The notes: a model not told the origin generated them from the sequence alone. A DNA stretch of 64,000 nucleotides from an uncultured Acidimicrobiia bacterium (GCA_963714055.1 OY970227.1:499079-563078), one strand, 5' to 3'; positions 1 through 52,200 are shown, counted from the first letter of the stretch. Program-made: numbers and translations.

Positions 1-1264
1 TCCTCGAGGTTGCGGGCCCGGCCGTCGTGGAGGAACGTGGTGTGGCCGTTGACGGTCTCCACCAACCCGATCCCCCACAGCGGCGGTGTTCGCCACTCCG
101 AGCCGGTGGCGAGGAAGTCGGGTCGTCCGTCCGCCAGCCCCGGGCCCATGTCGTGCAGGAGCAGGTCGGTGTACGGGTGGATCTCCTGGCCGGAGAGCTG
201 GGTGACCGGGTGATCCCCGGTGAGCAGGGTCGGTGTGTGGCAGGCCGTGCACCCGATGGCGGCGAACAGCTCGGCACCCCGCTCGACCTCGGGCTCGTCC
301 ATCCCTCGGCGGGCCGGGACCGCCAGCGTCTGCGAGTAGAACTCCATGTCGTCCATGCGGTCGGCGGGGATCTCGGGCGACCCCCCGGTCGGGGCGGCGA
401 GGCACGCACCCGCCGGGGTCGGGCAGTTCTCCTCCGGGTGCTCGTCGCTGGTGATGCCGATGTCGCCGGCAAAGGCCCCGGCCACCTGGTCACGCACCGT
501 GGCGACGTTGGCCTTCCACCCGAACCGCCCGAGGGTCACCGGCTCGTCGGGCCCGGTGGCGACGTAGTTGGGACGGCCGGACACCCCGTCGCCGTCGGCA
601 TCATCGGGATCGGCGAGGTCGAGGACGGCGGCCTCGGGCACCGCCTCGAGCAACCCCATGCCGATCACCTGCGGCGCCACCCGCGGCGAGGTCAGCGTGG
701 CGGCGTCGAGGGCGCCGTAGGCGAGGTCGGTGAAGTCGTACGCGCGGTCCGCTCAGGGTGTAGGTGGTGCCGTCGGCGTACGTCCCCTCGATCTCCTCAT
801 GGGTGATCCGCACGATGCCCTCGGCGGCGACCCCGGAGATGGCGCGGTCCTGCAGTTGGTCGCCGTAGAGCGGGTCGGGCAGCGGGGCGCCCCAGGCGCG
901 TCTCGCCCGGGTACCGACAGCCGCACCAGCAGCCCCCGCTCGGGATCCTCTGGCGACTCCGGCGGGCGGCCCCGCCCGTCGCCGACGTGGCACGACGAGC
1001 ACAGGCCTGGGCATTGAGGAGAGGCCCCAGCCCGTCCCGGGCATCGGTCGACGAGGGCGCGGTCACCCAGTTCTGGGTGAAGAAGCTGTCGCCCACCTCG
1101 AACACCCTCCGCTCACGGGCGGTGAGGCCGGGGATCGGCTGCCCGAAGGCGTTCCGGGTGGCGAACGCCACCGTGGCGTCGCCCCCCGAGGCCGGGTCGA
1201 GCAACTCGGGATCGGCTCCGCCACAGGCGGCGACGCCGCCGAGGGCGGCCAGGCCCAGAGCCAC
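1..1264 (-). pseudogene. DUF1111 di-haem cytochrome c peroxidase-like thiol oxidoreductase, partial at window edge, disrupted by >=3 frameshifts (~745, ~940, ~1010)
   Basis: Minus-strand translation gives an N-terminal lipoprotein signal (MALGLAALGGVAACGG) and the motif GLGPLLNAQAC in one frame. Other frames then give SCHVGDGRG, PLYGDQLQDRAISGVAAEGIVRITHEEIEGTYADGTTYTL, and a long run RFGWKANVATV...CTACHTP...EWRTPPLWG...FLHDGRARNL. All are DUF1111 hallmarks, and the gene is adjacent to an imelysin gene. Confidence 0.7.
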
Positions 1265-1291
1265 TGCCGCCAGCCGGCGTCCGGGCCTGCC

Positions 1292-5900: not shown

Positions 5901-7247
5901 ATGGGACCATCCCACCCGCCACACGCCGCACGGATACCGCATCTGTTGGGCGCGCTCGTGTTGACGGTGGCCATGCTCGGTGCCGCCCCGGCAGTGGCTG
6001 CCGACGGGCCGGGGGCACCCTGGGAGGAGTGGGCCCCTACAGGTGTGTCGGGACCGTTGGTCGGGCCGGGCGGGCGTATCGTCGGCCAGCGCGGACCGGA
6101 CGGGGCACCTGGCGAGGCAGGCCTGGCCGGCGAGGCGGGCGAGCCCGGGCCTGCCGGTCCGCCGGGCGCCACCGGCGCCGCCGGTGCGACCGGGCCCGAG
6201 GGCGAGCAGGGCCAGACCGGTGCGCAAGGCGACCCGGGCGAGATCGGGCCGCAGGGCCCGGTCGGACCCGTCGGCCCCATGGGACTTCAAGGTGAACAGG
6301 GCATCCAGGGCGACCCGGGTCCTATCGGTCCCATCGGGCCCCAAGGCCCGCAGGGTGAGCAGGGAATCCAGGGAGAGCAGGGCATCCAAGGCGACCCGGG
6401 TCCTATCGGTCCCATCGGGCCCCAAGGCCCGCAGGGTGAGCAGGGAATCCAGGGAGAGCAGGGCCCACAAGGCGAACAAGGCGAACAGGGACCCCAGGGC
6501 GAAGTCGGTCCAATCGGGCCCCAAGGCCCACAGGGTGACCAGGGAATCCAGGGACCCCAGGGAGAGCAAGGCCCACAGGGAGAGCAAGGCCCACAGGGCG
6601 AACAGGGAGTCCAGGGCGAAATCGGACCCATCGGGCCGCAAGGCCCTCAAGGCCAACAGGGAATCCAAGGCGATGTCGGGCCCATCGGGCCCATCGGGCC
6701 ACAAGGCGACCAAGGACCCGTCGGGCCCATCGGGCCAACCGGACCCCAAGGCGACCAAGGAGCCCAAGGCATTGCTGGACTGCCGGGGCCCATCGGGCCA
6801 CAGGGACCGCAGGGCGATACCGGCGCTGAAGGACCGCAAGGCCCACCGGGGCCGGCCGGTACCACCGGCGCCGAGGGGCCGCCGGGACCTCAGGGGCCGG
6901 CAGGTCCCGCGGGACCGGCCGGCCCGGCAGGACCTGCTGGACCGGCTGGCCCGATCGGCCCCGCAGGCCCGGCGGGACCACCCGGGACGTTCTCGGTGGT
7001 GGTCACGACCAACAGCCTGTCGGCCACTCCGGGCGCCGGCTTCCAGCTGACGGTCACCGCCACATGCACGACCGGTGTGGTGATCGCGGGTGGTGCCGCC
7101 ATCGGCGGGTCCCCGACCCAGGGACAGCAGGTGGCCCTCAACCAGTCGTTCCCGCAAGGAAACACCTGGGTAGCTCGGGCGCGGCAGGGCGGTAGCGGCA
7201 ACACAGCCTGGAACTTGACCTCCTACGCCGTCTGCCGGGTGCCCTGA
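5901..7247 (+). CDS. collagen-like triple-helix repeat protein with signal peptide and non-collagenous C-terminal domain
   Basis: The signal peptide is followed by ~290 aa of uninterrupted Gly-X-Y repeats ([21 protein letters not shown]...), then a ~90-aa Thr/Gly-rich globular tail. This is the BclA/Scl-like architecture. Confidence 0.85.
6300..6461. repeat. 2 x 81-bp perfect tandem duplication inside the collagen-like gene
   Basis: ggcatccagggcgacccgggtcctatcggtcccatcgggccccaaggcccgcagggtgagcagggaatccagggagagcag occurs twice in tandem (1 mismatch). It encodes a repeated 27-aa GXY block. Confidence 0.8.
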
Positions 7248-18902: not shown

Positions 18903-20078
18903 TCAGCCACCCCCCGGCACCGGGGTGGTGGGGGCGATGGACACGGGGGCGGTGCGCAGCCTCAAGTCGACCAACACCATCGCCGTCCCCGTGGCCACCA
19001 GCACCGGGGCGACGACGGGCACACCGAACGGGCCTACCAGGAGGCCGATCAGCCCGGGCACGAGGCTGGCGCCGAGCGAGGCGGCGGCCATCTGGTACCC
19101 GACCATGTTGGCGGTACCCCCGGTGCCGGTCCGCCCCGGGGTCAGCAGCATCTGCAGCGGGAAGATCGGTCCCATCGAGAAGCCGCACACCACCAACGCC
19201 GCCGGGCCGACCCAGGGGGCCGGCGACCACCAAACGACCGCCATGGCGACGACGGCGACGACAGCCGAGCCGGTCGACAGCTGGGGCGCGGGGAGCCGGT
19301 CGCCGAGCCCGGTGAGCAGGAGCCGAGCAGCGGTCAGGGCGCCGTAGAAGCCGGTCACCGCCAGCCCGGCGACGGCCGCGGTCAGCCCGCGGCCCTCGGT
19401 GAACAGGGTGAACGCCCACTGACCGGCGCCGACCTCGAAACCGGTGTAGAGGACGAACAGGCCGAGCGCCCACCAAGCCGACCCGGGCAGACGGCGCGAG
19501 CGGCGGTCCCCCTCAGGAGGCGGCGGAGATGACGCCCATCCCGAGGTCGCACCCGACATGAGCACCACGACGGCGACCTGCACGATGGCCAATCCGGCGA
19601 ACCCCCACCGCCACGAGACGCCGGCGGAGATCAGAGTGGTGAAGAACAGCGGGCCGAGGGCGGCCCCGATCCCATAACCGGCGTGGAGCATCCCCATCCC
19701 CCGCGCCCCATGGCGCAAGGTGACATGGGTGTTGGTGCCGGCCTCCAGGTACCCGGCGGCGAACCCGAGAACGAGCACGGACCCGAGCAGCACCGCCCGG
19801 TTGGGCGCCAGTGCCTGGCCGGCGATGCCGACCGCGGCGAGCGCCGCCGCCCATCGCAACATCGGGCCGGGGCCGATGCGCGCCGCCACCGACCCGCTCG
19901 ACAGGGTCGAGACCAGGAAGCCGCCGACCGACACGGCGATGAGCAGCCCGAGCTGGCCCACCGGCATCGCCAGGTCGCCCGCCATGGAGGGCCAGGCGAC
20001 CCCGCTGGAGGTGAGCGGCATCGCCAGCACCAGGGTGAGGACGGTGGCGAGCCCGAGGAGGCGGCGGGCGGCTTGCAC
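18903..20078 (-). CDS. MFS transporter
   Basis: 12 hydrophobic segments and 391 aa; typical MFS topology. Confidence 0.75.
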   Translation of the reverse strand: MQAARRLLGLATVLTLVLAMPLTSSGVAWPSMAGDLAMPVGQLGLLIAVSVGGFLVSTLSSGSVAARIGPGPMLRWAAALAAVGIAGQALAPNRAVLLGSVLVLGFAAGYLEAGTNTHVTLRHGARGMGMLHAGYGIGAALGPLFFTTLISAGVSWRWGFAGLAIVQVAVVVLMSGATSGWASSPPPPEGDRRSRRLPGSAWWALGLFVLYTGFEVGAGQWAFTLFTEGRGLTAAVAGLAVTGFYGALTAARLLLTGLGDRLPAPQLSTGSAVVAVVAMAVVWWSPAPWVGPAALVVCGFSMGPIFPLQMLLTPGRTGTGGTANMVGYQMAAASLGASLVPGLIGLLVGPFGVPVVAPVLVATGTAMVLVDLRLRTAPVSIAPTTPVPGGG

Positions 20079-22988: not shown

Positions 22989-23440
22989 CCGGGCCCGCTC
23001 CCGACCAATACCTCGATGCCGCCGTGGCCGAGGCGGAGGCCGGGCGAGCCGAAGGCGGCATTCCGATCGGGTCGGTGCTGGTGGTCGACGGCCGCATCGC
23101 CGGCCGGGGCCACAACCGCCGGGTGCAACAGGGAAGTGTCGTGCTCCACGCCGAGATGGACTGCCTCGAGGATGCCGGCCGGCTCCCGGCGTCGGCTTAC
23201 CGGCGGGCGACCCTCTACTCGACGCTGTCGCCGTGTTCGATGTGCACCGGCGCCGCCCTCCTCTACGGCATCGGGCAGGTGGTCGTCGGCGAGGACCGGA
23301 CGTTCCAGGGACCGCAGCACCTCCTCGAGGAGGCCGGTGTCGAGGTCACCGTGGTCGATGACTCACGGTGCGTGGCGATGATGGAGACGTTCATCGCCGC
23401 CAACCCCGAGCTCTGGAACGAGGACATCGGCCAGGAGTGA
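22982..23440 (+). CDS. Fcy1-like cytosine deaminase (CDA fold)
   Basis: HAEMDCLE...PCSMCTGA zinc-binding motifs, with a tail very close to yeast Fcy1 ([28 protein letters not shown]). A GTG start with an AAGGTG RBS overlaps the tdh end. Confidence 0.75.
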
Positions 23441-28821: not shown

Positions 28822-29800
28822 TCAGAGCCAGTCGCGGCGGCGGAAGACCCGGTAGAGGACGAAGCTCGCCGCCGCTATCAGGACCGTCGAGGCGACGACC
28901 CCCCAGGTGCTTCCCGCTCCCGGATAGGGGACGTTCATCCCGTAGTAGCCGGTGACGAGGGCGGGCACGGCAATGATGGCGGCCCAACTCGAGACCTTCT
29001 TGACTATGAGGTTCTGTCGAAAGTCACGCAGGCTGAGGTTGGTCTCGACGATGGTGCCCACCAGGTCGCGGAGGGAGTCCGAGGACTCGGAGACCCGCAG
29101 GATGTGGTCGTAGACATCCTGGAAGTAGGGGTACAACTCTTCCGTCACGGCGGGATGTTCCCGTCGCATGAGACTGCTGACCGCCTCGCGCATCGGCACG
29201 ACGAGACGATGGAAGCGGACCATCGCCCGGCGCATCTCGAACCATTGACGCTGCTGGGAGGGCTCGAGGGGCTTCTCCGCAAACATGGCGCCACTCACGT
29301 CCTCGTAGTACTCGTCGAACGCCTCGATGGCATCGAAGTACCCGTCGATGACGACGTCGAGCAGCCCGTAGAGCAGGAAGCCGACCCCGTGAGCGACGAG
29401 GTCCGGGGAGCGGTCGCAACGCGCCAGGACCGGCTCGATGGGGAAACGGTCGTCATCGCGGACGGTGATCAGCCAGCGGTGGCTGACGAAGGCGTCGACC
29501 TCGATCTCGTCGAGTCGGCCCGGCGGCGGTGGCGAGACGAACCGCCTGGGTGGACACGAACAGGTGGCTGGCGTACCGGTCCAGCTTCGGCCGTTGATGA
29601 GCACCGATTGCGTCCTCGACCGCCAGCTCGTGCAGCCCCAATTCGCCGGCGAGCTCGTGGAGTTGCTCTTTCGATGGCCCGCAAAGGTCGACCCAGACCA
29701 GCGTGTCGTCCTCGGCGAGGAGGTCGGAGACGTCGGCTACCGGGAAGCCGGTGTCGTCGAGGACGCCCTTGCGGTAGACGCGGGTCAGAGCCTCGGCCAT
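28822..29800 (-). CDS. corA: CorA family transporter (paralog 2) with apparent frameshift (~29525)
   Basis: N-terminus MAEALTRVYRKGVLDD...LHELAVEDAIGAHQRPKLDRY lies in one frame. The remainder (DEIEVDAFVSHRWLITVRDDD...YYGMNVPYPG) lies in another. The shift occurs in a cggcggcggtgg run. Confidence 0.65.
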
Positions 29801-29966
29801 GACGGTCCTTTCACGCGGATCACGCCTTGGACACCGGCGTGGGGTTGGCGCCACGCACCCCGTTCGAGCGCGCCGCATCGTACCATCGCCCCCCTGCCGC
29901 CCCCGGCGGATCCCGCTCGGCCCCGTCGTCTCGAATGCCGCCTGGCGAAGGTGGCATCATGACCGG

Positions 29967-36470: not shown

Positions 36471-38882
36471 ACCGCGACACCCAGCTCGTCGAGCTTGGCC
36501 CTCACGTCGGGATCGGACAGATGGCCCATGTGCCCCTTGGGCTCGGGGCAGCCGGTACGGGCCGGCCGGGGATCGGGGAGGCAGACGTCGGTGGGAGGGA
36601 GGCCGATCCGCTCGTCCGGCCCGGTGAACAGGGGCCCGCCGATCGGGTCCGTCAGCCGGAACACGTTCCACCAGCGTTCCCCACCCCCGCCGTCATCCCA
36701 GGACGAGGCCACCCCGGCGGCGAGCCCGCCGCCGAACACCCCGGGCCAGAAGCGGCGGTAGTACCGGCCGACCGGAGACCCGTGGGTGAGAGCCGCCAAG
36801 CGGTGCGGGTCGACGCCGTTCAGCTGTAGGGCGCACGCCAGCGACAGCACCGCCCCCTGGCTGTGGCCGACGATCACCACTCCCTTTCCCTCTGATTCCA
36901 CCAGGGTGGTGATGTGACCGACCAGCTCCGGGATGGCACGCTCGGCGTAGGCCGGTGGCGCCAGGGGGTGGAAGCGGCGTGGCCAGAACGTGCCGACGTC
37001 CCACACCACGCGCGACGATGCGCCGGATGGCGGGGAAGCGGAACGCTGCCACCAGGATGGCGAAGGCGACGACGGGGAGCGCCACGCCCAGGACCGCGCC
37101 GGCGGTCGCCAGCCAGCTCCACGACCGGGGCCACGGGTTCTCGGCGAGGGCGAAGTGCACACGGTCGAGCGACCACAGGTCCATCGCCGGTCGGCCGGCA
37201 CGGATCACGCCGACGAGGAGGGCCGATGCGGCCACCCACACCACCACGGTGATGAGGACGTCGACGCTCCCGGCCAGGTCGGACACCGCCCGCCGTCTTC
37301 CCGCCTTGGTCGCCATCACGGTGCGGCACGGCTCCGCCTGACCCCAGTACTCCTTGGTGACCCGGGAGACCGGCCACGCTTCCCAGCGGCGGAACAGGAG
37401 GTACACCACCGCCCCAAGCGCAGCGGCGATGACGGCGCCGGTGAACACCGCGGTCACCCAGGCATACCCGGTCGGCAGCATGTCATCCCCCCGCCACCGG
37501 TCGACGACCCAGCTCAGCCCGCTGCCGGTGACCGAAAGCAACAGCAGCGACAGGGCACTGACCGTGGTCACCGGGAGCCAGCGGTAGCGGTCTCGCCGCC
37601 CGGTCTCGGCGATGGCGGTGACCAGGAAGGCGGCGGTGGCTGCCGCCACCCCGAGCCACCAGACGTCGTTGGCGGCGGCGGCGAGCAGCCCGGTGGCTGC
37701 CGCGGCGAGCGCGCAGAGAACCCCGGCGGTGGTGCGTCGGCTGGCCAGCACGACCACCCCGGCAGGCAGGAGGACGACGAGCACCCCGACGACGTAGGCC
37801 CAGGCCCCGGGCGGGGTGAGGGTGCCATCCGCCAGCCACACGACGAGGACCACGGCGACCAGCCCGGCGAGGACGGCGAGGAGACGGAAGCGACCGGCAG
37901 TCAGTCCGTTGGACCACACCACGACTCCCCCACCCCGCCGGCGCCAGGCGAGGCACTCGACCACGGCGAGGGTCGCCACCACCAACCCCGACACCAGCAG
38001 GGCCCAGAGCGGTGCCGTGCCCCACAGGTCGTCGAACGAGGTCGTCGGCTGCGGCAGGTCCGCCGACCAGGCGACGGCGATCGAAGCGGCGACGACGAGC
38101 GCACCGGCCACTGCCAGCGAGGTGGCGACACGCCCCCATCGGCGGGCCAAGCCGACCACCATCGCCGTCGAGCCCACCAGACCGGCGGCGACAGCCACCC
38201 CGAGAGGGAGCGCCTCGTCGGTGGCCCGCCACACCGAGTACGCCGGCAGGAAGGCGACGGCGGCGGCGGCGAGGCCGAGCTCACCTCGGCGCAGCGCCTT
38301 GAGCACGGGGGCGGTCTGCCAGAACTCGGGGTCGGCGAGCCCCAGGTCGTCGTCGGCGACGGCATCGACCTCATCAGCACCGTCGGGGGCACCGAACTCC
38401 TCGTACCGGCGGCTGCGGATGGTGGCGACGGCGACGACGGCCAGTGCCAATGTGGCGACGCCTGCGGCGAGGGCCAGCCGGCGGCTCAACGGCTCGTCGG
38501 CCAGCGCGGCGAAGGCCAGGGAGGCGATCCAGACCATGAGCAGCACGGTCTGGAGGTAGGCGACGACGCGGACCAGACCTCGCTGCGCCGCCGTCGCCCG
38601 CGGGCCGGCGGCGGGATCGACCATCCAGCCGGCCACGTTGACCACGGTGAACGGGAGGAGGAACACCCAGAGTGCCCTGGTGGCGTTACGCGCCGAGAAC
38701 CCGCCCCACGAGTAGACCTGCCGGGAGCGCGGCGGGTCGCCAACAGGCTCGGGGTCTTCCCAGAACCCGGCGATGTCGTCTGCGGCATCGCCGATCGCCA
38801 CCACGTCCTCACCGAGTTGGTCTCGGGCGCTGCCCCCGCCGACCCCGTGGATGCGGAGCTCGACGACTTCGGGCCGGGCCAC
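36461..38882 (-). CDS. large polytopic membrane protein (~14 TM) with C-terminal alpha/beta-hydrolase (esterase/lipase, GHSQG) domain; apparent frameshift (~37020)
   Basis: A GTG start overlaps the upstream dienelactone-hydrolase stop as TAGTG. A long Ala/Val/Leu-rich TM region follows. The C-terminus (VVWDVGTFWPRRFHPLAPPAYAER...VVIVGHSQGAVLSLACA) is in the adjacent frame. Confidence 0.55.
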
Positions 38883-39680
38883 TAGGTGGTCCCCAGGTGC
38901 TCGAGCAGGAACGCCCGCACCACCGTCGCGGGCCCCCGGGGCTCGGTCGGCGTGATCGGTCAACACGGCGTGCGAGTCGGGAGGGCCGGGGATGTCCTTC
39001 GCCGGGGGCTGGGGCGAATACCGGGTGAAGCGGCCACCGCCGGCGGCGTACACGTCTTCGATGCGGTCGAGGCGGGCGCCCGTGCACATGGTGTCATCGG
39101 AGAACCGGAGCCCGAGCACCGGGGTGCCGGTGGCCACCGCCTGCTCCACCCGGCTCTGGCGGTCGCCCAGCTCGGCGGCGCTCACCTGCTTTGCCCTGGG
39201 GCGCAGCGGGACGCTGGGCTGGCTGGCAACGGCGGCGCCGACGCTTGGGTCGAGCACCAACGAGAAGACCAAGCCGCCGGTGAGGCACATTCCGATGACG
39301 CCGACGGTGCCCGGCGTCCCCTCGGCGACGTGGCGGCACAGGGCCCGCAGCCAACCGCTTATCGGGCTCGACCGGCCGGCGCTGAGCATGGCGAACTCTC
39401 GGCGTATGCAGATGAATCGGGCCTTGCGCAGCGGGTCCTTCGTCCCGGTGACCGTGCCGTCGAGGACCTGCCCGGGATACCCGTGGAGGACCGGGATGTG
39501 GACCTGGAAGTCGCCGGCGAGGGCGTCGGCGAAGTCGAGGCAGGCCCGACTGACGCCACCTACCTCGTGGAGCAGGACGACGCGGGGCCCGGGGCCGTCG
39601 ATCAGCAGCACATCGCGGGTCAGCCCGTCATAGGTGAACGGATATTCGCGAGGTGCTGGCAATGTTTCCGCTCCGGTTCC
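38883..39680 (-). CDS. dienelactone hydrolase family protein with apparent C-terminal frameshift (~38945)
   Basis: EYPFTYDGLTRDVLLIDGPGPRVVLLHEVGGVSRACLDFADALAGDFQVHIPVL is the DLH core. The genuine C-terminal helix (ATVVRAFLLEHLGTT, then stop) is in the +1 frame. The start within the track ORF is uncertain. Confidence 0.5.
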
Positions 39681-43008: not shown

Positions 43009-43214
43009 GACCACCCGAATGAACACGACCGAACCGAACAGACCACGAACAGCCTCCTCCGGAGGCACCAAGGAAAGGACAGGCTGATGCAGACAATGCA
43101 CGCCTACACATCGATGGTGATGGCTGCCGACGCGCACGCCGCCGAGCTGCACGAGCTGGGTCGCTCCCACACCGGGTTGCGCCACGCCCTGCGCCCGGCC
43201 CGCACCCACAAGCG

Positions 43215-44481
43215 CTACGCGGTGACCGATTCCGATCGATCCAGCCCCACCGAGACCTGACGGTCCGGCGGCAGATCAGACCGGGTAGCGGGTTGCGGCC
43301 CGCTATCCGGTCGACCATACCGAGGGCGCCGATTCGACCCCGCCCAGGCGATCGGCGCCCTCCCCGCGCCCGGACCTCGGCGGAGCAACGCGAAAGAGGC
43401 CGCCACGTGGGGGAATGTCGCAGTGGGCGACGGCGTGTTGGCCCAAGCACTAGCCGGAGCCGAAGGCGTCACCGAACCGGTCGTCGCTCTCGGGTTGACT
43501 GTGGATCCCGTCGGTGTGCTGGGACCACAAGTCGTCGCCGGTGATGGTGAGCCCCGAGCCTGACCCGTAGATGACGTTGACGGAACCGGCGTTGGTGTGG
43601 CCGACCACGTCCCCTGGGCGCAGTCGGATAGGTGCAGCGTGGCGACGTTGTTGGAGATGTGGTTGTCAGGTTGTGCTTGGGAGGCACAGCGGAAGCACAA
43701 GTCACCCGCAGACGACTAACGAACAACGGAAGGCGTTGTGCCGCAAGGGTCTTACGCCCGATCGATCTGGGCGTCGATGGTCGGGTCGGCGAGCGGAGCG
43801 AACACGTTGTAGTAGGTCATCGCGTAGATCGGCACATCCGGCGCAGCAGCGTGCAGCTCAGCCAAGATCACCGCCAAATGAGCGGCCATCGCTGCTGTTC
43901 GGCGTCGCATCCCGAAGGCTCGAACACGCAGAACACTGGTTGCCCTTCGGCGTCGATGTGCTGCAGGTCGTTGGCCCCGATGTCGATGGTCACCAGGGCG
44001 ATCTTGCCGGGGTGTTTTTCGAGGAACTTGACCGCTGGGCGTCGATCCCATTGTCGCCGTCCAACGGTGCCCGATCGCCAGGTCGGGGTACCCGTCGCCA
44101 TCGAAGTCGGCGGCGGCCCGGCTCGACCGAACTCGCTGAATCCGGGCTCAGGCGTACCCCGGACCCCGTCGCTTGCCTGGGACCACAAGTCGTCACCAGT
44201 GGCGGTGAGACCGGTTGCAGACCCATAGATGACGTTCACTGCGCCGACGTCCTGGTAGCCGCCGACGTCCTCGCCCGGTGCGCCGACCGCCAGGTCGGTG
44301 AACCCGTCACCGTTGAAGTCGGCGAAGGCTTCGACACTCGACCCGGGATCGCCTGGGCGTACGCCCCCGGCGCCACACCAGCGACGGACGCCGCCACGAT
44401 CAACACGACTGTTGCCAACCGGACGAACCTTGTACGAGCCAACGCACTCTGGCGGGATCGAGGCTGGAGCACATTCTCCAT
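43215..44481 (-). pseudogene. mosaic of gene remnants: FG-GAP repeat fragments (two), SGNH/GDSL hydrolase fragment, LuxR-HTH C-terminal fragment, secreted-protein signal peptide; >=5 frame changes
   Basis: Signal peptide MENVLQPRS...VAGVAPGAYAQA at 44481. FG-GAP units appear in shifting frames (FADFNGDGFTDLAVGAPGED...VNVIYGSATGLTATGDDLWSQ, DFDGDGYPDLAIG, NVIYGSGSGLTITGDDLWSQ). An SGNH block III (GKIALVTIDIGANDL) and a C-terminus (VPIYAMTYYNVFAPLADP) are present. A LuxR HTH fragment (NHISNNVATLHLSD) lies at ~43640. Confidence 0.55.
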
Positions 44482-44587
44482 GCAGGTCACGGGTTGTCGA
44501 CCTCCACCAGGGTGTACCCCAGCGGGCCGTCGGCGTCGGAGTGCCTGACGACTCCGATGTTCAACCCCTGTTCCGCGCCGGCCCAGC

Positions 44588-47300
44588 TCAGCTCGACGGT
44601 GCCGGTTTCGCCGGTCTGCGCCGAGTCGGGTGCGCTGTCGATGGTGAGGTTGCCTCCCGACGTCGCCGGGACGATCCAGGTGGACAGGTCGTAGGCGGCT
44701 TCGCCGTCGATGCGTGTCCCACCCGTGGACGTACACGGTCCACACTCCAGGCACCGGATCGAAGATGGTCACTTCCTCGTCGGTGCCGGCGTTGAAGCTG
44801 GCGCCCCGGAAGACTCCGGCGGGGTCGACGCACGTACACGTCGAGGTCGGTCCCGGGATCGGCGGCTTCGGGTGGGATGGCGAGGTGGAACAACGCCGTC
44901 TCGGCCGCAAGGTCGAACTCATGGATGGTGCTGTACCCGTCGTCGGGGTCGAAGCCTTGGTCAGGGTCCTGCACGACGGTGTCGGAGATGACCGTTGCCG
45001 TCCCCAGGCCGTACGCGGCGGCGGTGTATTCGCCGGTGTACCCGAAACGCACCTCGAAGGATGCGCTGCCGTCGGTGCCCGAGCCGGCGACCTCGGTCGG
45101 GGCGTCGAACAGGAGGGTGTTGACGGCGATCGGGCTGTACACCTCGTAGCGGCCGGCGATCCAGGTCAACGACCCGGTGCTCCACTCGCCGGGGTTGCCG
45201 GTCCCGTCGTTGGTGACGGTCACCTCGTAGGTGACCGAGTCACCCGGGTCGACCGTGAACGAGCTCGGTGCCACATCGACGTCGAATCCGGCCGGGGCGT
45301 CGATCGAGACCCGGTAGGTGGCCCGCCGCCCGAGGTTGGTGACGGTACGCGCCACGGTCTCGGTGTCGACGAGCTCGGCGATGCCGATCGACGGATAGTT
45401 GAGGTTGCTCGGATCGGTGGGGTAACCCAGCGTCTCGAGCTCGGCGCAGGTGGCCGCCGGGTCGGCGAACACTTCGGGGCCTTCGGTGCACAGGAACCCG
45501 AGGTAGTCGTTGAACCCGGCGTCGTACACCAGCCCGGGCTGGAACATCGAACCCGGGATCGAAGGCATACCGGGGTCGACGTGCCCCGACCCGGTGGCGA
45601 ACGGTCCGGCCGGGGTGACCCGGTCGTTGTCGACCACGTCGTGGCGCGCCGTGGTCATCACCGCGGAACGGGCCGCCGCCGGGCTCCAGTCGGGGTGCCG
45701 TTGCTTGAGCAGGGCGTACACCCCGGCGATGTGCGGCGTCGACATCGAAGTGCCCGGCGATCGCCTGGAACATCTCGCCGGCCCCGGCATAGGGAGAGTG
45801 AGCCGCCAGGATCTGGATGCCCGGTGCGGTGATGTCCGGCTTGATGATGTCGGGTGCTTCGAGATTCGGGCCGCGAGACGAGAACCTGGTGATCGACGGT
45901 GCCGAAGGCCACGACGTGGTGGTGTTCTGCACCACCAGTCGCGCCGTCGGGTCCGCGGCAGTCGCGATGTACTCCTTGATGGCGAGTCCCGGCGTGTGGT
46001 CGACGTGCACCCCAGGCACCGAGTGGCTGTCGGTGAACAGGTTGCCGTCGTCGGTCGTGTCATAGATGATGATCCCGACCCCCCCGGCCTCGAGCACCGC
46101 CTGGCTCCACTCGCATCGACAGCCGATCCCGCGGCGGCACAGCACGATCGCCCCCCCGACCACGTCCGGATCGAGCGGACCCGCTGTGCAGTCTTCGCTG
46201 CCGGCGTCAGCCGAGTCGACGAGTGGGGAGGTTGCCAACCCCCTGGGTGAGCGAGGCGCCCAGGTAGGTCTCCCCGTTGCCGAGGACGATCCGACCAGGG
46301 AAGAACCGGCGCTGGGTGCTCGCCGCCACCGTGGTGAGCCACGGCATCGTTCCGCCGACGGTGCCAGGCCAGTCTGCCTTCGTTGCCTGGCGAAGCGGCA
46401 ATGAACACGCCGGCGTCGGCGGCGAACAGGAAGGCGATGCTCTCGACGCCGGTCAGGTTGCCGGAACCGATCGAGTAGTTGATGACGTCGACACCGTCGC
46501 CAACCGCGGTGTCGATGGCCACCGCCAGGTCGGAACTGAAGGACATACCGAAGTCCCCGCCGGCCGTCTTGTAGGCGATGATGTGCGCTCGGGGGGCGAT
46601 GCCGCTGACCGTGCCCAGGTCACGGCCCAAGACCTCCGCGGGGACGCTTCGGTTGCCGGCCGCCGTGCTCGCCGTGTGCGAGCCGTGGCCGTCGTGATCG
46701 CGAGCCGAATCGAACTCGACATCCTCGATCCCGATGACGGCCTCATAGGTCGCCATGACCTGACGAGCGCCCAGCAGCTTGTCGTTGCACTCGAACGCGA
46801 CGTCGGCCGGGTTGTGAGCCGTGTTGCCGAACTCGCACGGGATGTCCGGGTTGACCCCGGCGGGGTAGGTGTAGGAGCCGTCGTCGGCGAAGCTCGGATG
46901 CTCGGGCCAGATCCCTGAGTCGATGACGCCCACCACGACACCGCGACCGTCGATGCCGCGACCCCACGCCTCGCCTCGACCGTCGAGGCCGAGAAGTCGG
47001 GGCTGGAGTCGGTCGTCAGGTAGCGCTCGACATCGGGCACCACCCGCGCCACTCCGGGCTGGGCAGCCAGGGCCACCGCCTCGTCGTGCGACGCCACGAC
47101 GGCGAACCCGTTGACCACATTGGTCAGATCCGAGACCCTGGCGCCCTCCGCCACTCCCGGCGTCGTCATCACCTGGCGATGGCTGGCGCGGATCCGTCCC
47201 GGTCGGCACGGGCCCATTGCCGTCCGCAGGCCTTCTTGCGCGGACGCTGGAGGTTCATCGGTCCCTCCACGATCAGGAGACGGTGAATTCGTGGCGCATG
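44588..47300 (-). pseudogene. subtilisin-like serine protease (S8) with I9 propeptide, PA domain and C-terminal beta domain; >=4 frameshifts
   Basis: Asp region GVVVGVIDSGIWPEHPSF, His region HGSHTAST, PA insert and Ser region GTSMSTPHIAGVYALLKQRHPDW. These segments and the I9 propeptide fall in at least four different frames. Confidence 0.65.
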
Positions 47301-48230: not shown

Positions 48231-48908
48231 TCAGGGTTGGCCGGGGCGTTGACCCAATCCGGCCTGGCGGGCGGCGACGATGGCGTGGGCTCGGTCGGAC
48301 AGGTGCAGCTTGGCGAAGATGTTGGAGATGTGGTTGCTCACCGTCTTGCCCGAGATGTAGAGACGGGAGGCGATGGCGGCGTTGTCGTGCCCGGTGGCGA
48401 TGAGGTCGAGGACCTCGCGTTCGCGGTCGGTGAGCTCGGGGAAAGGGCTCACCGACATCCCCTTGCCGTCGGCGTGCTGGAAGAAGACGGTGAGCCGGCG
48501 GGCGATGGCCGGCCCGAACAGCGCCTCTCCGGCGGCCACGGCCCGGATGGTGCGCAACACCTCGGCGGTGTCGGCGCCCTTGAGGATGTAGCCGTGGGCG
48601 CCGGCGCACATGGCGGCGAACAGGGAGTCGTCGTCCTCGAGCATGGTGAGCATCACGACCTCGACGTCAGGGTGGTCGGCGCGGACCCGGCGGGTGGCCT
48701 CGATGCCGTTCATGTCCGTCATCTGGATGTCCATCAGGACCACGTCGGGCGCCGTCTCCGCGATCCGGGCCAGTGCCTCGGCCCCGGTCCCGGCCTCGCC
48801 CACCACCTCGGTGTCATCGGCGGCGGTCAGCAACGCGGTCAGTCCTTCGCGAAACAGCGTGTGATCGTCGACCACCAGCACGCGCAGCGGACGGGTCCGC
48901 TCAGCCAT
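48231..48908 (-). CDS. LuxR/NarL-family response regulator
   Basis: Start MAERTRPLRVLVVDDH. REC plus LuxR HTH (LTDREREVLDLIATGHDNAAIASRLYISGKTVSNHISNIFAKL). Confidence 0.85.
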   Translation of the reverse strand: MAERTRPLRVLVVDDHTLFREGLTALLTAADDTEVVGEAGTGAEALARIAETAPDVVLMDIQMTDMNGIEATRRVRADHPDVEVVMLTMLEDDDSLFAAMCAGAHGYILKGADTAEVLRTIRAVAAGEALFGPAIARRLTVFFQHADGKGMSVSPFPELTDREREVLDLIATGHDNAAIASRLYISGKTVSNHISNIFAKLHLSDRAHAIVAARQAGLGQRPGQP

Positions 48909-51106
48909 GCGGCACCTCGACCGCACTCGGGACCGGGCGGTCCGGTGGCGCCGGCTCCAGGCCCGTAGCACTCTCGACCGCTGCCCGACCGGGAAGGGTC
49001 GCCATGGGGAGGGTGGCGGAGACTTCGGTGCCGGCGCCGTCCAGGCGGGATACCCGGAGGGTTCCACCAAGCTCCTCGGCTCGTTCCCGCATCGATGTCA
49101 TGCCGACACCCGGCTGGGTGACGGCGCGGACACCGACACCGTCGTCGACGATCCGAATGAGCAATGCGCCATCGGCCAACTCCAGCGAGATCCTGCAGAT
49201 CGACGCACCGGCGTGGCGCGCCACGTTGGTGACGGCCTCGCGGGCGATGCGGTAGGCGGCTACCTCCACGGCGGCGGGGAGATCGCCCAGCGGGTCCGGA
49301 TGAGTGGTCACCTCCACTCGCAGGTCGTTCGAGCGGTCGAGCTGCCCGCCGTGCGCCGCCAGGGCTCCCACCAGGCCGAGCTCGTCCAGGGCGGGTGGTC
49401 GCAGCTCGTACACCAACCGGCGGATGTCTGCCACCAGCTCCTGGTTCTGCCGCTTGAGCGACGTCACCAGCTGGGCGACGTCAGGTCGATTGTCGGCGAG
49501 CAGGGCGAGCACGGCGTCGAGCCGGAAGGTCTGGCTGGCCAGTGACGGGCCGAGACCGTCGTGCAGGTCGCGGCGTAGTCGCCGCCGTTCCTCCTCGCGG
49601 GCCAGCACGAGCTGTTCGCGGGATCGCTGCAGCGCCTGGGTGAGCCGCATCGCATGGGCCAGGCCGCCGGCCTGGTGGGCCACGTCGTCGAGGAGGCGGC
49701 GATCGTCGGCGTGGAGGCCCTCGTGGGCGGATCGTGGGGCCACCACCAATCGGCCGACCAGTTCCCCTTGGTGACGTAGCTCGATCGTCTCCACGTTGTC
49801 ACCGAGATGGCCTACGAAGGCCCGGGTCTCCCAGGTCCCGTCTTGCTCCAGCTCGAACGCCACCCCGGGCAGCTTGAGCGCCTCGGCGACGGTCTGGACC
49901 AGGCTGTGGAGCGTGGCGTCCGGTTCGCCGGACTGCGCCAGCAGGCGACCCAGCTCCGACAGCACCGCATAGGGGTCGTCGCGCCGACCGAACATCACCC
50001 GGTTCACCACCCTCTGCACCCGGTTGCGCACCGGGTTGAACGCCACCGCCACGATGGCGGCGGCCAGCAGCGACAGGCCCAGGTTCCCGCCGGTGGGCAC
50101 CAGGGCGCCGACACCCACCACCACCGCGACGTAGGCCGCCGCCACCAGGGCGGTCATGGTCCCGTAGACGACGGTGCGGTTGATCACCAGGTCGACGTCG
50201 TAGAGCCGGTAGCGCAGCACGCCGAGGCCCAGAGCGATCACCAGGAAGAGACCGGAGGCAGACGTGAGGGCATCGAGGGGGGCGGTCAACCCGAGGTCGA
50301 CGCCCTCCCCCTCCACCAGGACGGTGTCGACCAGTACCAGGGCCTCGAGAAAGGCCACCAGGCCGAAGGCGTAGAGCACCCACTTGAGACGCTGGCGAAG
50401 ATCGGTGCCGGAGGTGCGCCACCGCGTGATCAAGCTACCGACCCCGACCACCACCGACGCCATCATCACCAGCAACCAGACGGTGTTGACGACTTCCTCA
50501 GGCACCGGCAGGATCCCGGTCGGGTTGGACGGTGGCGAAGCCACCTCCAGGAACCGGTTGGTCAAGGGCCGCTCGGCTCAGCATGAAGGCGGTGATGAGG
50601 ACCACCCACGCCCAAGCCACCACCGGTACCGCCCGGCGCCACCGGCCCACAGAATGCCCGTCGGGGAACAGAGCCGGGAGCAACAACAGGGCGAATACGA
50701 AGGTGATCATCCACAGGTCCTGCACCCACTCGGCCACACGACCGAACGGAAGACCCGGAGCCACGTACCAGGCGTACTCGGCGTACATGCCGGCCAGCTC
50801 GATGACGCTGATCAGCACGCCGGCCGCCAGCATCAACCACCCGTAACGCTGCGGACGGCCTCGCAGCACCACGACGCCACCCAGCATGGTCAAGAAGAGG
50901 AGGGTGAGCGAGGGGACGCGGTCGCTGGGGAAGAACGCGGGACCGACACCGGGCACGGCGGCGGCGCGAAGTCCCGACATCAAGGCCCATGCGCCGATCG
51001 CGCACCCCGCCGCCACCGCTGACGCCGCGGCCACGATGAGCCAGTGCCAACGTCGCAAGGCCGGTGATGGCCCCGATAGTGGGGACGCGGCCGCCATCAC
51101 CGTCAC
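48901..51106 (-). CDS. multi-TM sensor histidine kinase (HisKA_3/HATPase_c, GAF-like region) with apparent frameshift (~50530)
   Basis: H-box LRRDLHDGLGPSLAS and the ATPase motifs IVDDGVGV...GVGMTSMRERA are present. An additional N-terminal multi-TM module (50498-51106) lies in the adjacent frame. Confidence 0.7.
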
Positions 51107-51130
51107 CTCCTCCGCGACGCTCCACGAACC

Positions 51131-52087
51131 CTACGCAGCGCCGGCTGCGGGCGGCGGTAGCAATCGGTCATGCCACCGGCTCGACGTGACCAGCTGCCAT
51201 GAGGGGGGACCCGGCTGGAGTTTCGCGCCGGGACCGACCGACGGTGGCCACGGCGAAGGCCGCGCCCCAGAGGATCGCCGCCGCCGCCCAGAAGGTCGAC
51301 GCCGCCGACGCCACGTCGGGGTACACCAGGGAGTGCAGTCCGTACTCGATGGATCCCGAGCGCGGCGATCCAGGCGGGCAGACGCCACCCGGGATGGTCG
51401 CTCGACCCGAGCAGCCCGCACCAAAGGACGACCACTGCCAGCAGGGCTGCGGTGGCCCAGTGCTCCATCCCGGCGTGGGGGTCGCCGGCGGCGTTGCGCC
51501 ATTGCAGCAACGCGTGGTCGACGGCGAACACCAGCCAGGGAACCGCCGCTAAGCCCACCAGAGCACCCATCGTGACGATCCGTCCTGGGGCACCGGACGA
51601 GGTCCTGCGCCCGGGGGTGGAGCAGCGCCAGGAGCAGCACCGGCACCAGCAGCGTGACCTCCTCCACCAGCCACTCACCCAGGGTCCCGCTCAATCCATA
51701 GACGACGGCACCCGCCACGACGATGCCGACCGCCTGCAGCATCGGCGCCACCCGTCGCTCCGGCTTGCGCAGCTGCACCACGACGCCCAGGACAAGTGCC
51801 CAGGCGATGATGCCGGCGATGTTCATGTGGCCGCGGTGGATCTCGTCGGCGGCGGGCAGGTCGTCGATGAGCGACATCAACGTTTCCCAGGGCAGCCACA
51901 TGAACACCACTTCCGTGACGGCGAAGATCATGAAGATCGACACCAGCAGGGAGGTCAGCACCGCCAGCACGCGGAAGGCGATCCGCCGCGCCCGAGAGCC
52001 ACCCTCTTCCGGGACCTCCCCCGCCTCGATGGGGGTGCGGCTCGCCGAAGCTCCCCCGAGCGCCTCTACGTCCCTGGTGTTGGTCAT
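51131..52087 (-). CDS. hypothetical polytopic membrane protein (first gene of the LuxR two-component operon), frame-disrupted near its 3' half
   Basis: Start MTNTRDVEAL with a GGAGGAA RBS, preceded directly by leader copy B. TM segments appear in two frames (FRVLAVLTSLLVSIFMIFAV..., ...LVGLAAVPWLVFAV...). Confidence 0.45.
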   Translation of the reverse strand: MTNTRDVEALGGASASRTPIEAGEVPEEGGSRARRIAFRVLAVLTSLLVSIFMIFAVTEVVFMWLPWETLMSLIDDLPAADEIHRGHMNIAGIIAWALVLGVVVQLRKPERRVAPMLQAVGIVVAGAVVYGLSGTLGEWLVEEVTLLVPVLLLALLHPRAQDLVRCPRTDRHDGCSGGLSGGSLAGVRRRPRVAAMAQRRRRPPRRDGALGHRSPAGSGRPLVRAARVERPSRVASARLDRRARDPSSTDCTPWCTPTWRRRRRPSGRRRRSSGARPSPWPPSVGPGAKLQPGPPSWQLVTSSRWHDRLLPPPAAGAA

Positions 52088-52099
52088 AGCCGTTCCTCC

Positions 52100-52200
52100 G
52101 GATCTCGACCTGGCCGGAGCTTGCCCCACCCCTCTTCCCGTTGTCACGGGGCAGGGCCCCCGTCTGCCTCGGGAAGAGACCAGGAAGAGCCGGACTCCGG
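52100..52200 (-). promoter_or_regulatory. conserved nested-palindrome 5' leader element, copy B
   Basis: See copy A. The same CUUCCCG...CGGGAAG / GCCC..CCCCGUGACA / GUGGGGCAAGCUCCGG..CAGGUCGAG architecture ends ~12 nt before the RBS of the 52087 gene. Confidence 0.45.

Follow-up and report, generated by a model that had tools for sequence, protein, structure and literature searches.

Cucumisin-like (plant-type or pyrolysin-like) S8A subtilases with a PA insert and an Fn3-like domain, of which tomato SBT3 (3i6s), cucumisin (3vta) and the bacterial protease 7eox are named examples, and secreted bacterial FG-GAP beta-propeller proteins (PF01839 / PF13517) are the described systems closest to the two genes considered here. 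Their damaged state invites comparison with two further classes, namely recent pseudogenes and remnants of genes in the accessory regions of free-living bacterial genomes, and the residual indel errors of Nanopore-only metagenome-assembled genomes (MAGs). The locus lies in a stretch of 64,000 nucleotides from an uncultured Acidimicrobiia bacterium (GCA_963714055.1 OY970227.1:499079-563078), the whole of which we call the window. Its subtilase has the domain order and catalytic motifs of the cucumisin-like class but begins within the I9 propeptide, whose first half is missing together with the signal peptide and start codon, and it carries seven 1-nt indels. Its FG-GAP gene has, like the beta-propeller proteins, a signal peptide and repeats, and its C-terminus agrees with that of the homologue P0122 at about 90% of amino acids, but about two of a presumed seven blades are left, with unrelated sequence inside. 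As in recent pseudogenes there are private large deletions, a gene interior has been swapped for fragments and the locus is also partly lost in sister strains, although relaxed constraint is not seen in the subtilase and the operon, if dead at all, must have died very recently. As in Nanopore-only MAGs the small breaks are 1 nt long, occur in many unrelated genes, are private to the assembly and lie in genes under purifying selection; in contrast to the errors to which we liken them, they fall mostly outside long homopolymers and are strongly clustered, and the comparison presumes the technology behind the window.

We propose that the two genes formed a unit for secreted proteins, of which the locus is now a remnant; it lies at a structurally unstable position in a high-GC Acidimicrobiia-like genome and bears two superimposed kinds of damage. 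We consider this probable, at moderate confidence. The first gene is the following.

44490..47213, minus strand: cucumisin-like S8 subtilase, truncated at its 5' end (frameshift-aware alignment to P0001, Pfam)

The intact relative P0001, a protein of 978 aa, aligns over its residues 72-978 with window positions 47213-44490 when frameshifts are allowed for, with 809 of 913 positions identical (89% amino acid identity) and no in-frame stop once the frame is corrected; the stop codon lies just below 44490. The frame-corrected protein has the Pfam order I9-S8-PA-fn3_6, with Peptidase_S8 scoring 143.9 bits (cut-off 21.8), and the catalytic Asp, His and Ser motifs (VIDSGI, HGSHTAS and GTSMSTPH) are intact in the alignment to P0001. 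I9 is represented by its C-terminal half (profile positions 48-81), and the combination of an uninterrupted frame, a start codon, a signal peptide and a complete I9 was not found in the window copy. The nearest solved structures are 7eox, 3vta and 3i6s, and full-length bacterial homologues of about 980 aa number in the thousands, the best of them 89% identical; L001, L039, L041 and L043 hold orthologues at ~75% identity. The sequence-only reading had described the regions of this gene as spread over at least four frames, and it is indeed broken up, into eight in-frame segments, but a single strand offers no more than three frames.

The missing start of the gene corresponds to a junction that is seen in comparison with the sister assembly L020.

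47215..47251, minus strand: deletion scar (alignment of window and L020, translations)

The window has 36 nt at this position and L020 has 284 nt, a loss of about 225-249 nt by which the subtilase ATG, the signal peptide and residues 1-71 are gone; the N-terminus is kept in both L020 and P0001. Upstream, an ATG at about 47258 with GGAGG before it is in frame with codon 72 after correction of the frameshift at 47197. The junction is orderly, with flanks that can be aligned on both sides, and we regard the loss of about 225 nt at the subtilase start as probably real.

The region downstream of the subtilase is a mosaic, for which the parts are as follows.

43380..44481, minus strand: complete FG-GAP cassette, starting at the ATG and running about 70 nt beyond the stop (missing in L020 by blastn and junction alignment)
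44070..44481, minus strand: FG-GAP N-terminal part (three-frame translation, Pfam, alignment to P0122, P0125 and P0121)
43761..44050, minus strand: SGNH/GDSL hydrolase internal fragment, 290 nt (phmmer, frameshift-aware alignments, Pfam)
43666..43760, minus strand: unassigned filler, about 95 nt, separating the SGNH and LuxR pieces
43615..43665, minus strand: piece coding for a LuxR/GerE HTH recognition helix, 51 nt (blastn to 48286-48336)
43450..43612, minus strand: FG-GAP C-terminal half-repeat and stop (orthologous to the final 162 nt of the L064 gene)
48231..48908, minus strand: intact NarL/LuxR-type response regulator, Response_reg and GerE (ORF list, Pfam, blastn)

All of the fragments that the sequence-only reading had listed were recovered on the minus strand, near the positions it gave and each well beyond chance. 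The FG-GAP N-terminal part begins with a signal-peptide-like sequence at the ATG at 44481, five nucleotides past the subtilase stop, and contains about 1.5 repeats (two matched stretches, PF01839, E=3.8e-17) with two frame changes, at about 44340 and 44118. These repeats resemble those of a second close relative, L064, at the level of paralogues only (70-73%), whereas the C-terminal half-repeat is cleanly orthologous to L064 positions 6825-6986, with 92.6% nucleotide identity and no gaps up to the junction. The ancestral beta-propeller would have had about seven blades, and such a set is not present here, the filler being preceded by about 1.5 repeats and followed by half of one; five are found in the L064 remnant by itself. 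FG-GAP units are the only notable repeats at the locus.

The SGNH fragment matches P0241, a protein carrying PF13472 and PF00657, with E=1.2e-33 and 70% amino acid identity by phmmer, and is 79% identical in nucleotides to L065. Its match to Lipase_GDSL_2 (PF13472) covers positions 52-120 of 178 with E=2.7e-6 and 28.5 bits, which is below the cut-off of 32.9. It corresponds to residues ~13-107 of homologues that are ~175-190 residues long and run about 70 residues further, including a VHPN motif, and its frame shifts by 1 nt twice, at about 44033 and 43902. Block III, noted earlier, is there as the motif GANDL, and block I (GDS, with the nucleophile Ser) and block V (DxxH) are missing; the C-terminus that had also been assigned to this fragment does not hold up, as the fragment is internal and its terminal stop is an artefact of frame. 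No donor for the SGNH sequence was found within the window, and the ~95 nt of filler match nothing else in the window and nothing in the loci retrieved. The LuxR piece is identical at 45 of 51 nt (88%) to 48286-48336 in the same orientation, the HTH region of the response regulator at 48231..48908, which is its closest relative in the window. The piece is thus more similar than the ~80% first estimated, and with E about 1e-12 by blastn a chance match is ruled out. It amounts to 17 codons of an otherwise absent GerE domain, with homology stopping abruptly on both sides, and adjoins the point at which orthology to the L064 FG-GAP gene resumes. Microhomology at this LuxR/FG-GAP junction is at most an imperfect 5 nt (GCCCA vs GCCAA) and is unconvincing, and no IS ends, terminal inverted repeats, target-site duplications or transposase remnant were seen at the fragment boundaries or junctions.

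Two other accounts of the mosaic were considered and rejected. Its middle does not consist of FG-GAP repeats read in other frames, since it cannot be aligned to FG-GAP homologues in any frame. The P0001 contig has a different gene, of 204 aa, after the subtilase, and this is not an intact form of the FG-GAP ancestor: it has no Pfam hit and no close FG-GAP homologue of 204 aa, and L064 shows that the ancestor was much longer. The replacement of four to five FG-GAP blades by filler is probably a real lesion.

Comparison with the relatives shows that this is a variable spot, two close relatives having large lesions at the same place that differ from those of the window. L020 is 94.5% identical to the window over 33.4-56.6 kb and keeps the subtilase N-terminus, with the FG-GAP cassette cleanly missing, such that its subtilase stop is followed directly by sequence homologous to window position 43379 and below (blastn blocks and junction alignment). 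L064, which is 95.5% and 93.3% identical to the window in two aligned blocks, keeps five FG-GAP repeats and has a deletion of ~8.4 kb from about codon 40 of a membrane-protein gene into the FG-GAP interior; it was considered as the ancestral arrangement and rejected, as it is itself a deletion that fuses the start of the membrane-protein gene to the interior of the FG-GAP gene. These observations support the view of the locus as an accessory secretome site with genuine-looking structural scars, and to this extent the pseudogenisation and recombination proposed from the sequence alone stand, the large scars being private and the spot variable.

It could be argued that the frameshifts, the mosaic and the 5' deletion all stem from a poor or chimeric consensus of collapsed strains. 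Structural polymorphism among close relatives is the setting in which metagenome mis-joins occur, and the density of small-scale errors peaks exactly at this locus. However, patches of 290 nt and 51 nt from unrelated genes are not readily made by kilobase-long reads, and with 79% nucleotide identity of the SGNH piece to its nearest known homologue and 88% of the LuxR piece to the local gene, neither is a fresh copy of window sequence. The clean orthology of the FG-GAP C-terminus to L064 up to its junction, and the orderly 5' deletion, also speak against it, and we consider a wholly artefactual origin unlikely.

The small breaks within the subtilase are of a different character from these large lesions.

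44709..47197, minus strand: seven 1-nt frameshifts private to the window (L020 and P0001 in frame at each site)

Five are insertions (at about 44709-44712, 44827-44831, 45752-45753, 46227-46230 and 46372-46374) and two are deletions (at about 46991-46993 and 47196-47197). All are 1 nt, none being longer, and three of the five insertions do not copy a neighbouring base. At least four further single-base breaks lie in the mosaic, and private 1-nt indels are also present in QOR (about four), the ArsR-like gene, the cupredoxin gene, the histidine kinase, a large membrane protein and Aldedh/4HBT. Indels in the neighbourhood of the subtilase lie at 38925, 40814, 40889, 41556, 41744, 42301, 47789 and 50575. 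Single Pfam domains cross frame junctions in DHOR, QOR and an alpha/beta hydrolase, with DHOR and the hydrolase being tens of kilobases away. Over 22 kb the window and L020 differ by 58 single-nucleotide indels, in all genes and mostly outside homopolymers, and the out-of-frame assembly usually has the extra base, by about 5:1, whether this is the window or L020; among 11 insertions in the window, six are non-duplicative. No common sequence motif was seen by eye at the insertion sites. Against a short-read contig the window shows one single-base indel in 2.3 kb, and this is intergenic.

The sequence-only reading had named beforehand what would count against it, namely that relatives carry intact genes, that the differences are only homopolymer indels and that the LuxR match is due to chance. 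The subtilase of the relatives is indeed without these breaks, but homopolymer indels do not account for the differences, and chance does not account for the LuxR match.

The substitutions in the subtilase tell us more about its history. Relative to L020, 78% fall at third codon positions, codon differences comprise 102 synonymous and 42 nonsynonymous, and divergence at positions 1+2 is 1.4% (26 substitutions in total), as low as in the neighbouring genes. This pattern points to strong purifying selection, with no relaxed constraint to be seen in it. A short period of relaxed constraint may have occurred in the window copy, because its private amino acid changes (23) are about twice those of L020 (11). 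Thus, of the signs of a genuine pseudogene, one is present, in that none of the lesions (the filler, the 5' deletion and all seven frameshifts) recurs in L020, L064 or P0001, but relaxed constraint and premature stops are not seen, given the 78% third-position substitutions, the lack of stops and the 102:42 ratio.

The breaks are also unevenly distributed. Private 1-nt indels occur in the window at 0.42 per kb over 12-31 kb and at 1.39 per kb over 37.6-43.3 kb, and seven in 2.7 kb of subtilase (2.6 per kb) is therefore a real local excess over the 12-31 kb region (Poisson P=1.8e-4), although not a significant one over the immediate left flank (P=0.09). By three-way polarisation, the three sister long-read MAG contigs (L064, L020/L072 and L073) have private 1-nt indels of their own at 0.7-3.0 per kb, which affect all genes. 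A uniform error rate across the window is ruled out by the difference between 0.42 per kb (12-31 kb) and 1.4-2.6 per kb (37.6-47.2 kb). We also note that the excess of breaks coincides with the large lesions, as a truly dead operon would also show.

An alternative is that everything is real, and that the operon, or perhaps all of 40.8-52 kb, is a decaying island in which the frameshifts followed loss of the start codon and signal peptide. The clustering of the breaks relative to 12-31 kb (2.6 vs 0.42 per kb), their co-location with private large lesions, the 23 private amino acid changes against 11 in L020 and the dispensability of the locus, judging by the relatives, are all consistent with decay. 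However, the subtilase has no in-frame stops and no indel longer than 1 nt, with five of the seven breaks being insertions and three of those non-duplicative, a spectrum different from that expected of replication slippage and the bacterial deletion bias. The usual ratio of indels to substitutions is roughly 1:10, at which seven neutral indels would imply at least ~50 extra changes at positions 1+2; the total there relative to L020 is 26, and 78% of substitutions are at third positions. Furthermore, the same kind of break is found in neighbours under purifying selection (third-position shares of 70% in QOR and 67% in the ArsR-like gene), and the structurally complete subtilase of L020 has five private frameshifts of its own. 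We therefore doubt that all of the damage is real, and give this account little weight.

Small insertions, patchwork filler and large deletions do co-locate within about 15 kb and IS ends are absent, and both would fit a natural burst in which +1 insertions and filler capture arose together when double-strand breaks at a recombination hot spot underwent error-prone repair. But the insertion spectrum is the same across the genomes of the noisy sister assemblies, so no special biology is needed, and we know of no repair pathway that yields non-duplicative +1 insertions across 15 kb; such a burst seems to us extremely improbable. A narrower version, in which the FG-GAP patchwork is a natural filler-DNA junction with the SGNH and LuxR pieces caught in end-joining double-strand-break repair, and part of the +1 cluster is real collateral mutagenesis, would be highly unlikely as well.

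We favor instead consensus error as the origin of most of the single-base breaks, concentrated around a strain-variable spot. This is probable because such breaks occur elsewhere in the window and in sister MAGs, their spectrum is error-like, selection on the affected genes is intact and the relatives derive from Nanopore sequencing. The MFD relatives are Nanopore-only MAGs, for which Flye was the assembler and a single Medaka round the polishing step, and the authors of this pipeline themselves looked for such errors (PMC12313526). The window too was most probably assembled from long metagenome reads. The earlier argument that the density of breaks itself speaks against indel error is thus not supported, given the like breaks in other genes and sister MAGs, the error-like spectrum, the purifying selection and the Nanopore-only relatives. 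That most 1-nt breaks are consensus errors and a few large lesions are real is a joint reading to which we give somewhat better than even weight.

The events at the locus might then be reconstructed as follows. A cucumisin-like S8 subtilase would have been the first gene, with an FG-GAP beta-propeller gene tightly coupled downstream. A deletion of ~225 nt would have taken the subtilase start codon, signal peptide and first 71 residues, including I9 propeptide sequence, and four to five FG-GAP blades would have been swapped for a patchwork of ~460 nt composed of the internal SGNH fragment, the 95 nt of filler and the 51-nt LuxR-HTH piece. We suggest that these large lesions arose by illegitimate, end-joining-type recombination, sister strains having lost parts of the same region by other routes. 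The single-base breaks would be assembly consensus errors within a wider error zone, at about 37.6-52 kb, that could result from low or mixed read support at a strain-variable locus. As the protease could not be secreted and the propeller would be down to a two-blade stub, the unit is probably dead or dying in this strain.

The outcome is an ordinary one, and its meaning is mainly cautionary, in that a run of frame breaks in a well-conserved gene of a long-read MAG is not evidence for pseudogenisation. Comparison of two or three sister assemblies, together with the codon position of substitutions, tells private consensus errors from real structural change. For the organisms themselves, the secreted subtilase and FG-GAP unit is a dispensable and unstable spot, damaged in three different ways in related soil Acidimicrobiia populations.

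In this window of ~70% GC, the minus-strand coding signal from 47.2 down to 43.45 kb jumps between frames in the ORF listing, the GC3 frame plot and the three-frame translations. When the in-frame subtilase pieces are joined, a protein database search finds S8 proteases of full length (~980 aa) in the thousands, with P0001, a 978-aa protein with I9, S8, PA and fn3_6 domains, as the best match (89% identity); the nearest known relatives are the cucumisin-like S8A subtilases (7eox, 3vta, 3i6s). A frameshift-aware alignment to P0001 delimits the gene:

47213-44490, minus strand: S8 subtilase, from P0001 residue 72 to the last residue

In this alignment 809 of 913 positions are identical, and all three catalytic motifs (Asp, His, Ser) are preserved. 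Seven frameshifts interrupt it, all of a single base (two missing bases and five extra), and it contains neither in-frame stops nor indels larger than 1 nt. Residues 1-71 of P0001 have no counterpart.

Scanning public genomes with P0001 yielded the contig L020, from the Microflora Danica MAG MFD05567.bin.2.61, which has ~94.5% DNA identity to window 33.4-56.6 kb. Relative to L020, 78% of the subtilase substitutions fall at third codon positions, divergence at codon positions one and two (1.4%) matches the low level of the neighbouring genes, and codon differences are synonymous in 102 cases and nonsynonymous in 42. Seven neutral indels normally bring dozens of extra changes at codon positions one and two. 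The substitution pattern argues that the window subtilase is still under purifying selection, although it may have passed through a short phase of relaxed constraint, given its 23 private amino-acid changes versus 11 in L020, with P0001 as outgroup.

The single-base breaks extend well beyond the subtilase. Across 22 kb, 58 single-nucleotide indels separate the window from L020; no gene is free of them, and most do not lie in homopolymers. A GC3-phase test shows the two to be broken at different sites, the broken one usually carrying an extra base (~5:1 in each). A third sequence, the second relative L064, reached through the FG-GAP homologue P0122 (95.5% identity to window 37.6-43.3 kb and 93.3% to 52.2-56.6 kb), assigns several insertions to the window, and the phase test adds others:

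38925: window-private insertion in a large membrane protein (three-way with L064)
40814, 40889, 41556 and 41744: window-private insertions in the quinone oxidoreductase (Zn-ADH) gene, QOR, and its 3' flank (three-way with L064)
42301: window-private insertion in the ArsR-like gene (three-way with L064)
47789, 50575, 51358, 51575 and 54424: further window-side breaks (phase test)

The four 1-nt insertions in QOR and its flank lie within less than 1 kb, a density equal to that of the subtilase, and 70% of QOR substitutions are at third codon positions. Single Pfam matches also cross frame junctions in QOR, the di-haem oxidoreductase (DHOR), an alpha/beta hydrolase (~11391) and CorA (~29541). The DHOR gene (window 1-1290) adjoins an imelysin gene, and its junctions at ~884 and ~751 lie inside a single Pfam match. 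The two pieces of CorA (window 28825-29804) recur in the sister contigs L072 (15699-17103) and L073 (15643-17276); from this recurrence, the CorA split could be a common, real frameshift rather than an error.

MAGs such as that of L020 are Nanopore-only, Flye-assembled and polished once with Medaka (PMC12313526). Private 1-nt indels number 1.6 per kb in L020/L072, 3.0 in L073 and 0.7 in L064, and the structurally complete L020 subtilase has five private frameshifts. All of the breaks are of 1 nt and most are insertions, about half of which do not copy a neighbouring base (6/11 in the window; 42/65 in L072, L073 and L020 pooled). Natural small indels are mostly of the slippage type, and bacteria show a deletion bias. 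We take the breaks to be mostly not real because they also occur outside the locus, the sister assemblies are equal or worse, the spectrum is wrong for mutation, the subtilase remains under purifying selection, and it lacks premature stops; that everything at the locus is real seems improbable. The nearest known counterparts of the frame breaks are the residual indel errors of Nanopore MAGs.

Private 1-nt indels are unevenly distributed along the window. At 12.1-31.3 kb there are only 0.42 per kb, most of them intergenic, and against the short-read contig L068 (98% identical) the window shows one single-base indel, also intergenic, in 2.3 kb. Higher rates are seen at 37.6-43.3 kb (1.39 per kb), in the subtilase (2.57) and in the FG-GAP/SGNH/LuxR mosaic (~4); the subtilase excess is significant relative to distant background (P=1.8e-4) and not significant relative to the adjacent flank (P=0.09). 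The window therefore has a hot zone at ~37.6-52 kb, broader than the 43215-47300 locus first singled out, with its centre at the structurally variable spot. Our best guess is that it would reflect thin or mixed read coverage at a place of structural difference between co-existing strains; local repair-associated mutagenesis, a rival account of such clustering, we consider very unlikely.

Other irregularities were seen. Window 51000-52200 has ~10 indels versus L020 in 0.85 kb, with only 34% of substitutions at third positions, and may be either fast-evolving, non-coding or poorly resolved in both assemblies. AT skew is unusually strong (0.26-0.43) in the 1-kb bins of 6001-7000, 19001-20000, 37001-38000 and 50001-52000 and balanced elsewhere. 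A 66-nt presence/absence difference from L068 lies at 22989, between tdh and a cytidine-deaminase gene.

The fragment mosaic claimed for the minus strand is borne out by translations, Pfam and homologue alignments. An ATG at 44481, five nucleotides past the subtilase stop, begins a signal-peptide-like sequence and is followed by:

Downstream of the 44481 ATG, minus strand: ~1.5 FG-GAP repeats (Pfam E=3.8e-17)
~44050 to 43761, minus strand: SGNH hydrolase fragment from the protein interior, sharing 70% identity with P0241 (E=1.2e-33)
Between the SGNH and LuxR-HTH pieces, minus strand: 95 nt of unassigned filler
51 nt, minus strand: LuxR-HTH piece, with 88% identity to the stretch of the response-regulator gene that encodes its HTH (48286-48336)
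43612 to 43450, minus strand: last FG-GAP half-repeat and stop

Just one point needs real correction: the SGNH piece, previously read as including a C-terminus, is internal, keeping block III and missing blocks I and V. For the FG-GAP remnants, the nearest known counterparts are FG-GAP propellers. Orthology to L064 is limited to the final 162 nt (92.6%); the N-terminal repeats match it at the level of a paralogue, and unrelated filler occupies the place of the expected 4-5 repeats.

L020 and L064 together give the ancestral order as Aldedh, membrane protein, histidine kinase, LuxR-type regulator, cupredoxin-like lipoprotein, subtilase, FG-GAP protein, 57-aa ORF and ArsR-like gene, and the damage differs in each sequence. 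L020 keeps the entire subtilase including its N-terminus and cleanly lacks the FG-GAP cassette (window 43380-44481), from the FG-GAP ATG to ~70 nt past its stop, with no repeat visible at the junction (L020:12873-12878). In L064, a deletion of ~8.4 kb joins codon ~40 of the membrane protein to the FG-GAP interior (L064:5680-6100; window ~51980), removing the histidine kinase, LuxR regulator, cupredoxin gene and subtilase and leaving a five-repeat FG-GAP remnant (P0122, 328 aa). In the window, 36 nt at 47215-47251 replace 284 nt of L020, with loss of the subtilase ATG, signal peptide and residues 1-71. This deletion fuses an upstream minus-strand ATG at 47258, which has a GGAGG motif, to codon 72, in frame once the 47197 frameshift is corrected, and a leaderless, propeptide-truncated subtilase could in principle be produced from it. 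The 57-aa ORF (window 43087-43260, plus strand), downstream of the ArsR-like gene, has no Pfam match; 57-aa genes are also called in L064 and the P0001 contig at an apparently equivalent position, matched by length and place.

IS scars, raised by the sequence-only reading, were looked for at the fragment boundaries, and the junctions proved free of flanking inverted repeats, target duplications and transposase remnants. The large lesions are probably real, and it is unlikely that everything, scars included, is artefact. On balance we favour real large lesions combined with artefactual small indels. Of the earlier case for pseudogenisation and recombination, the real-looking recombination scars and the accessory secretome locus stand, and the step from break density to real pseudogenisation fails. 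The locus is no new kind of system: the nearest known counterparts of its large scars are ordinary gene remnants, and the lesions look like ordinary illegitimate-recombination scars in a dispensable, variable spot.
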